Shown: one piece after another, positions 33,276 to 33,557 of the stretch
Layout of the letters: each line of letters starts with the position of its first letter
Numbering within the stretch: position 1 is the first letter of the stretch
From: Macrostomum lignano
Lineage: Eukaryota
Direction: 5' to 3'
DNA: 64,000 nucleotides
Assembly: GCA_002269645.1 (NCBI GenBank)
Contig: NIVC01000867.1
Span: 124,001 to 188,000, forward strand
Position numbers and translations under genes: made by a program
Notes under the pieces: model-generated
Database searches by the model: none
What the model was told of the DNA's origin: nothing
The model's input: only the letters and a program-made list of their open reading frames with translations

Positions 33276-33557
33276 ATGGGCAACGCACTGTCCAAACAGG
33301 CGCCCCAACTACAGCAACTCTACGAATGCCCAATATGTTTAACTGATGACTTGGCTGTCAAGCCACCAATTATTTGTGAAAACAGACATCGCATATGCGG
33401 ACAATATTTAAGCGACTCACATTATATTCAGCTCTGGCAGAATTGCCCGATAGGTAGAAGTAGTTTGCGGCAGTGCGCCTATTGTTAGTCTTGGCGCACA
33501 TGTCAATACTGTAACCAAAAACATTTTATTTGCATGCGTATACTTACCTTTAAATAA
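33276..33557 (+). CDS. Extra 3' ORF: Gly2/Ser6 myristoylation-type N-terminus + RING-like domain, partly degenerate
   Basis: ACAATGG start; MGNALSK...CPIC-x12-CENRH-x2-C-x2-(Y)...CPI(G)R. There is a TAG at 33486-33488, after which the frame continues SWRTCQYCNQKHFIC to TAA at 33557. Confidence 0.7.

Follow-up and report, generated by a model that had tools for sequence, protein, structure and literature searches.

The short RING-type reading frame found downstream of pol and ahead of the 3' LTR in a Macrostomum lignano LTR retroelement is very probably a truncated, ligand-damaged and likely non-functional remnant of RING-A, a 222-codon tandem-RING accessory gene whose intact product appears to be of E3 type. 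RING-A and RING-B of sister subfamilies in the same genome are under purifying selection (dN/dS ~0.1-0.3). The remnant was studied in a stretch of 64,000 nucleotides (GenBank assembly GCA_002269645.1, contig NIVC01000867.1, positions 124,001 to 188,000 of the forward strand), referred to here as the window, to which all coordinates without a locus name belong. An initial annotation had likened the frame to the small RING matrix protein Z of arenaviruses. A Z-sized protein is not supported: the ORF represents codons 1 to ~88 of a tandem-RING gene that has 222 codons when intact and was cut here by a ~1.3-kb deletion. Its 70-aa size is not a Z-like smallness, because a stop codon and the deletion produced it, and the frame should be labeled a pseudogene remnant rather than a small Z-like protein.

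The host element is an LTR retroelement that occupies positions 24095-34766 of the plus strand (~10.7 kb) and is flanked by the target-site duplication TTGT (24091-24094 for the 5' copy, 34767-34770 for the 3' copy). The 5' LTR (24095-25154, TG...CA, with a PBS-like TGG at 25157) and the 3' LTR (33707-34766) are 1060 bp each at an offset of 9612. They differ at one position of 1060 (25148 A vs 34760 C); thus, the element is young. Sequences for gag (CCHC), an env-like domain, protease, RT, RNase H, and integrase extend from 25851 to 33164 on the plus strand. The CCHC match of gag is weak, and protease, RT, RNase H, and integrase are of the Ty3/gypsy kind. Between the pol stop at 33164 and the start of the 3' LTR at 33707, and therefore in the usual env slot, as the initial annotation had it, the plus strand carries a conserved non-coding element (33178-33238, ahead of the RING-A start), the RING-A remnant (33276-33488), RING-A homology past the stop codon of the remnant (33489-33537), an AT-rich filler (33538-33666), and a pre-LTR conserved segment with a short purine run, GGGAGA (33667-33706), in which homology with relatives resumes.

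The env-like domain itself is positioned between gag and protease, with the Gag zinc knuckle upstream, and not after pol. Its label rests on a sub-threshold Pfam match (Monjiviricetes_fusion, 21.5-22.1 bits vs a cut-off of 27), hydrophobic segments, and an RRRR site, because the AF2 model was unusable (pLDDT 28.7). In the relative L067 (448-7953), gag, the env-like domain, and pol form a single 2502-aa ORF, an unusual layout for a polyprotein, as the Env part would be lumenal and its neighbors on either side, Gag and Pol, cytosolic. Relative to sister copies, the window has 1-nt deletions at 27691, 29856, and 30731, which distribute gag-pol over four reading frames. When all deletions in the window are considered (27691, 29049, 29856, 30731), two single-base deletions are private, one is shared, and there is also a private 3-bp deletion. 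Private single-base deletions are also carried by most of the subfamily copies aligned (loci L078-L081 beside the window), and the majority of these deletions do not fall in long homopolymers. They may reflect decay or deletion-biased assembly errors; since the latter may apply, the whole window element is called non-functional with less certainty than the RING ORF. The element was inserted into a satellite array with a 16-bp period (TGTGTCACTCTCCAAT type), which covers 22263-24094 and continues from 34767 onward. A separate array with a 34-bp period lies downstream (36713-37569), and long open frames with Gly/Glu/Arg repeats and GERE-type low complexity are found at 39115-40199.

The window ORF starts with ATG and comprises 70 amino acids plus TAG (33276-33488, plus strand; translation MGNALSKQAPQLQQLYECPICLTDDLAVKPPIICENRHRICGQYLSDSHYIQLWQNCPIGRSSLRQCAYC). 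Its N-terminus, MGNALSK, is of the N-myristoylation type (Gly2/Ser6 pattern), in agreement with the first reading of its MGNALS start. C3HC4 RING domains follow the spacing rule C-x2-C-x(9-39)-C-x(1-3)-H-x(2-3)-C-x2-C-x(4-48)-C-x2-C, and the window ORF shows C18-x2-C21-x12-C34-x3-H38-x2-C41-x2-Y44-x12-C57-x2-G60. In particular, codon 44 is TAT (33405), which puts Tyr44 at ligand position 6, and codon 60 is GGT (33453), which puts Gly60 at ligand position 8; six of the eight zinc ligands of a RING are therefore present, and each of the two zinc sites has lost one. Codon 71 is TAG (33486-33488) and interrupts a second Cys/His cluster, CAYC*SWRTCQYCNQKHFIC. Beyond the TAG the frame continues as SWRTCQYCNQKHFIC... 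until TAA at 33555-33557, and the stretch 33489-33537 (codons 72 to ~88) corresponds to the first half of RING2, homology with intact relatives stopping at 33537. The coordinates first reported (33276-33557, TAT at 33405, GGT at 33453) proved exact against both the sequence and the ORF list. When searched alone against Pfam, the window ORF matched 0 families at E<=0.1. A chance Cys/His pattern is excluded, because same-frame relatives in the same genome encode 222 aa with complete RINGs.

The lesions are shared by close copies of the element. A DNA search of the same genome with 33165-33707 (543 bp) returned 22 loci at 98-100% identity, including the window locus. A sister group, 82-86% identical, was matched only over the first 373 and the last 41 bases. 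Gly60 and TAG71 are common to all 22 subfamily copies, which shows that the lesions are inherited features of the subfamily and not products of misassembly; of the two explanations offered initially, decay thus stands, and misassembly is set aside for the RING lesions. Sister-group copies have Cys at both altered positions and no stop, which answers the question first raised about other copies. Within the subfamily, Cys44 is still present in 6/22 copies, further ligands have been lost (Cys57Tyr in two copies, Cys70Arg in one), and two of the 22 copies have acquired additional frameshifts. Over codons 1-70 of the 20 in-frame copies, 10 variable sites are nonsynonymous and 4 synonymous, a near neutral ratio.

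These data bear on the proposal that the short 70-aa product functions in its own right, perhaps as a myristoylated decoy or as a dominant-negative form of the intact RING-A of sister elements. The ATG, the Gly2/Ser6 start, and the upstream conserved non-coding element have all been kept, the window subfamily has the most near-identical copies among those found, and production of a myristoylated 70-aa peptide is conceivable. However, the window copy lacks one ligand in each zinc site, and the near neutral ratio of nonsynonymous to synonymous sites, together with the frameshifted copies and the additional ligand losses, fits neutral drift. Moreover, a second subfamily has lost the gene at another breakpoint (see below), so that what recurs is loss and not a new function. 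A working remnant is therefore very improbable, and the ORF is better regarded as a relic of RING-A.

Comparison of the window with the intact element L071 shows how far the loss extends. Homology reaches 33537 and returns at 33667, and 1311 bp of L071 are skipped; this skipped stretch corresponds to the C-terminal ~135 codons of RING-A and the whole of RING-B. In its place the window has the 129-bp filler (33538-33666), for which a homology search detected no match. The window subfamily lost the gene pair via the ~1.3-kb deletion, the stop codon, and the ligand substitutions. The L030 type, with at least 21 of the matches listed when the genome was searched with RING-A protein, represents another abundant subfamily; its match to L071 ends at RING-A codon ~121, TGA stops are present, and RING-B is absent (L030, L029, L058; contigs C102, C1308, and others of genome G000). 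Because this breakpoint differs from that of the window subfamily, the module has been lost independently at least twice. Both module-less subfamilies are high in copy number. The RING genes are dispensable in cis for germline copying, since a RING-broken subfamily with near-identical LTRs still multiplied. The genome thus holds a natural series of elements, with RING-A and RING-B constrained, with three RING genes, or with the module lost, which is suited to testing the role of these genes.

Intact RING-A is encoded by the sister group in the same frame as a 222-aa ORF (e.g., L025:1621-2286 and L026:1609-2274). In the close clade it starts with MGNA[LQ]S[KR], the L025/L026 type being MGNALSKQAPQ. 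Two complete C3HC4 RINGs are followed by a tail of ~110 aa with a helical domain of ~90 aa, which carries an invariant W147-P148-x-P150 (WPxP) motif. The paralogue RING-B (~210 aa, the sister-group ORFs having ~190-220 aa, also with two RINGs) comes next after RING-A. A protein search of the same genome with RING-A returned at least 150 matches, with identities from 100% down to 24%, and no stop was present in 17 of the 21 matches listed that cover residues 1-220/222. Genomic context was read from fourteen 10-kb stretches. In families whose pol is 70-97% identical to that of the window, the gene order is gag, env-like, PR, RT, IN, RING-A, RING-B, and pol lies directly upstream of the RING genes in L066, L067, L068, L071, and L074. 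The window layout is thus repeated in relatives: the accessory ORF belongs to the element, occupies the interval from pol to the 3' LTR, and is co-inherited with the rest. The LTRs of L071 are identical (866 bp). One family has three RING ORFs (L066; L061 and L062), and RING-A identity drops to ~40% where that of pol is ~72%. No GT-AG joint was found in contigs that cover the L075 element end to end from runs X1, X4, X7, and X9, which are only presumed to be RNA; the sole joint in the contigs covering L075 from these presumed RNA runs was low-depth, non-GT-AG, and confined to one run.

In a family alignment of 22 sequences (nine RING-A and 13 RING-B/C), little or no variation is seen at any of the 16 Cys/His ligands, at Pro58, at Arg61, and in W147-P148-x-P150. 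In the corresponding tree, RING-A (9 rows) and RING-B/C (13 rows) separate with support of 100/100 each, which places the A/B duplication before the divergence of these element families. WPxP occurs in 37 of the 40 full-length family ORFs, and 13 of the 40 have a Met-Gly start, every one of these being a close-clade RING-A. Distant RING-A proteins start with MANTFECP or MDCPICL, and MTEMDTCP is also found among the non-Gly2 starts of the distant RING-A/RING-B/C set.

Several further arrangements of these genes were observed. At L025/L070 (G000:C2121:56500-66500), the module is tandemly duplicated as A-B-A'-B', and the post-pol element is repeated before each A. Partial elements form dense clusters on contigs C2121, C1130, C87, and C272. 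RING-B-like ORFs without a recognizable pol upstream are located at L072:8436-9050 and at L073:3483-3887 and 8452-9120. They are accompanied by repeated ORFs that have a common SGYSFETLLTFKKAIE...EDENFRC motif and by a weak Ulp1-protease-like ORF (Peptidase_C48, E 0.0095); this setting may represent another carrier element or a domesticated copy.

Purifying selection is evident in both genes. RING-A was compared in 36 pairs of nine intact sequences, of which seven had saturated dS and gave no ratio; dN/dS was 0.07-0.26 in 28 of the 29 remaining pairs and 0.53 in the last, a near-identical pair, and the RING half and the C-terminal half of the protein had similar values. For RING-B, 13 of the 15 pairs gave 0.17-0.29; the remaining two, both close pairs, gave 0.08 and 0.65. 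Sister subfamilies with intact genes thus keep the ORF under constraint, and it is neither absent nor neutrally evolving there, the two outcomes that would have told against the initial annotation. When codons 1-90 of the window remnant are compared with eleven intact or longer relatives, dN/dS is 0.15-0.23 (dS 0.54-1.13); the window lineage was therefore constrained for most of its history and lost the gene recently.

The non-coding element upstream of RING-A has its own pattern of conservation. Its 61 bases (33178-33238), which come right after the end of pol, scarcely vary among element families in which RING-A is only ~40% identical, and they are conserved far more strongly than the adjoining coding DNA. 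In a proposed four-helix structure, 97.6% of cells are paired, whereas sliding the partners lowers this to 30-44%. Compensatory changes are seen in three pairs, two of which lie in a helix that would form a pseudoknot with an invariant helix. RNAalifold applied to this stretch recovered only three of the proposed helices and no covariation, and Rfam gave no match to it. An alternative CTCTAC-GTAAGAG pairing was rejected, because variants break it. As a guess, the element may control expression of the RING genes.

In profile and structure comparisons, the intact protein comes closest to RINGs. For L025, an intact relative, Sina_RING ranks first among Pfam models (22.1 bits, cut-off 29.3, E 1.6e-4), followed by zf-RING_2 (21.0 bits, cut-off 27.3, E 4.2e-4). 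The frame had initially been called SINA/SIAH-like; its RING type and the first place of Sina_RING bear this out, although the score remains below the threshold. When the family profile was searched against the PDB, the matches included Ring1B (1.9e-5), TRIM5 (3.9e-5), SIAH1 (5.4e-5), and TRIM21 (1.1e-4), and RING2 reached weakly to BRE1, MDM2, and Cbl. The AF2 model of intact RING-A, built from the 22-row alignment, is one compact body (pLDDT 86.9, pTM 0.79) in which residues 1-9 are disordered. Foldseek with this model returned no PDB row at E<=0.001, and its best rows are RING E3s, with a fused RNF4 RING dimer first (E 0.03) and a RING1B-BMI1 fusion also among them; the VIA structure search gave RINGs at Z 4.2-5.0. 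Fused or heterodimeric RING pairs (the RNF4 tandem-RING construct 4ap4 and RING1B-BMI1, E 0.03-0.1) thus resemble RING-A as top Foldseek rows, but the E-values are weak, the TM-scores are 0.19, and the analogy concerns arrangement alone. By this analogy, the two RINGs of one chain may pack as a RING dimer. For the C-terminal helical domain, the VIA search gave no clear structural relative (best Z 5.5-6.6, inside the range that the tool gives as noise for helical folds), and an Atlas search gave no usable match.

A RING domain alone does not imply an E3, as some RINGs are not E3s. RING1 of this family conserves Ile/Val20 (after Cys1-Pro), Trp54, the invariant Pro58, and Arg61 right after the last Cys, which we take to be the E2/ubiquitin-contact residues of active RINGs. 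Intact RING-A would most probably be a RING E3 ubiquitin-ligase-type accessory factor. Close-clade RING-A would be held at membranes by its predicted N-myristoylation, and the fast-evolving helical domain is a putative substrate chooser, acting on a host or an element substrate. Of the two roles named at the outset, matrix protein or E3-like accessory, the latter is thus the better supported and a Z-like matrix the weaker.

The RING resemblance might also point to a captured fragment of a host gene, SIAH-like in nature, that rides along with no use to the element. Sina_RING as the best Pfam model, SIAH1 among the top PDB matches, and the RING-B-like ORFs at two loci without recognizable adjoining pol (L072, L073) would be expected of such a fragment. 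The purifying selection on both genes between element subfamilies argues against it, as does retention of the gene pair in families whose pol is ~72% identical, with an A/B split that is older still. SINA/SIAH proteins and RING-A share a RING of the style CP[IV]C...PP..C..H..C...CP.CR, and SIAH1 RING-ZnF1 is found among the top PDB rows. However, Pfam detected no Sina substrate-binding/zinc-finger domain, and RING-A has neither the SIAH zinc fingers nor the TRAF-like substrate-binding domain, its C-terminal domain being helical. Furthermore, Sina_RING stays below its cut-off, SIAH1 scores no better than Ring1B or TRIM5, which match equally well or better, and relatives elsewhere are few. Passive host capture is thus hardly plausible, and an accessory gene maintained by the elements is preferred.

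Relatives outside the M. lignano genome were indeed scarce. None came from word-indexed protein searches, whether run on RING-A alone, on the 22-sequence profile, or at longer lengths, and scans of IMG/VR viral and JGI metagenome contigs gave nothing. An exhaustive profile search of 1.84 billion representatives returned four proteins at E<=1e-30 and eight at E<=1e-10. The sole named relative, P0002, which is also the best match, is a 660-aa UniRef model from Macrostomum lignano ('RING-type domain-containing protein') that strings together RING-B units seen here and is probably an annotation artefact across an element cluster. Five unnamed proteins (P0003-P0006, P0016) come from public run assemblies, and three full-length unnamed relatives have the same two-RING plus WP layout. 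Compared with the M. lignano genome, P0003 and P0005 reach at most 42% and 33% identity, respectively, over most of their length (P0003 up to 51% over shorter stretches); the RING family is therefore likely to occur in other organisms as well. None of P0002, P0003-P0006, and P0016 has a Met-Gly start.

The distribution of this start is important for the suggestion that the protein is a Z-like matrix, that is, a myristoylated RING that coats the membrane, connects the Env tail with the Gag/nucleocapsid, drives budding, and supplies the membrane binding missing from Gag. Arenavirus Z has ~90-100 aa, a single RING, and C-terminal late domains. Like Z, RING-A is a RING protein of viral type whose Gly2 start is of the N-myristoylation kind. 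The Gly2/Ser6 pattern (MGNALSK/MGNAQSR) is found in 13/13 full-length close-clade RING-A proteins, and the disorder of model residues 1-9 is as expected for a lipidated tail. The window Gag, said in the first reading to lack a membrane-binding matrix role, is without Gly2 (it starts with MARRNP), and the element carries an env-like domain. In the VIA search, the RING2 region was matched by Z of Lassa virus, with a Z-score of 4.3 and an rmsd of 2.9 over 49 residues.

On the other hand, Gly2 is missing from the three distant RING-A and all 13 RING-B/C proteins in the alignment and, among the 40 full-length family ORFs, from all 27 that are not close-clade RING-A; because it is confined to the close clade, lipid anchoring would be a clade-specific addition and not a feature of the family. 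Late-domain motifs are nearly absent from the 40 full-length family ORFs (PT/SAP in none, PPxY in none, YPxnL in two), and intact RING-A, with 222 aa, two RINGs, and a ~90-aa helical domain, is not a single-RING protein. The Lassa Z structure (5i72_B) occupies rank 36 in the VIA search, where its Z of 4.3 is tied with cellular RINGs and no better than those of Nse1, RNF146, FANCL, and PHF7 (Z 4.2-5.0), and arenavirus Z is absent from the best 60 of 82 PDB profile matches. In the structural comparison with Z and SIAH proposed at the start, the best rows of the model are RING domains, but similarity to Z does not rise above that to cellular RINGs. Moreover, in L067, in which Gag, the env-like membrane segments, and Pol share one ORF, Gag would already be tethered to the membrane, and because of this junction a separate membrane adaptor is not obviously needed. 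Taken together, a Z-like matrix function is unlikely, and the E3-type reading of RING-A is retained.

It is tentatively suggested that these elements may form an env-bearing endogenous retrovirus lineage with its own pair or trio of tandem-RING E3s, one of them lipid-anchored, which would eliminate restriction or silencing factors of the host while the element spreads from cell to cell; the RING-deleted subfamilies would then be purely intragenomic amplifiers. If true, these would be the first retroelement-encoded E3s. Retroviruses and LTR retroelements hijack cellular ubiquitin ligases through adaptor proteins, and RING genes of an LTR retroelement's own stand in contrast to this adaptor-based strategy. 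In the portions of the literature accessible to our searches, no report of a retroelement-encoded RING gene was found, and term look-ups in the main texts of PMC5408684 and PMC13524379 gave no occurrence of the word 'RING'.

Viral RING E3s are among the closest known systems. In a language-model comparison, the look-alikes are giant-virus RING clusters (score 0.92, a lead only), and the EHV-1 RING appears in the family-profile PDB search at E 0.046. Viral RING E3 proteins include herpesvirus ICP0, poxvirus p28, and baculovirus IE2/PE38/IAP, all of DNA viruses. They share with RING-A a virus-borne RING that serves as an accessory factor; in contrast, the carrier here is an LTR retroelement, the RINGs are in tandem, and the C-terminal domain is without a named relative. 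The extra ORFs of LTR retrotransposons ('ORF3') include env, GDSL, DEDDy, coiled-coil, and TM types (PMC5408684). The RING genes resemble such ORFs in their position between pol and the 3' LTR, in their lineage specificity, and in their gain and loss among related elements. They differ from them in that two or three paralogous tandem RING genes occupy this position, with env upstream in the interval between gag and protease.
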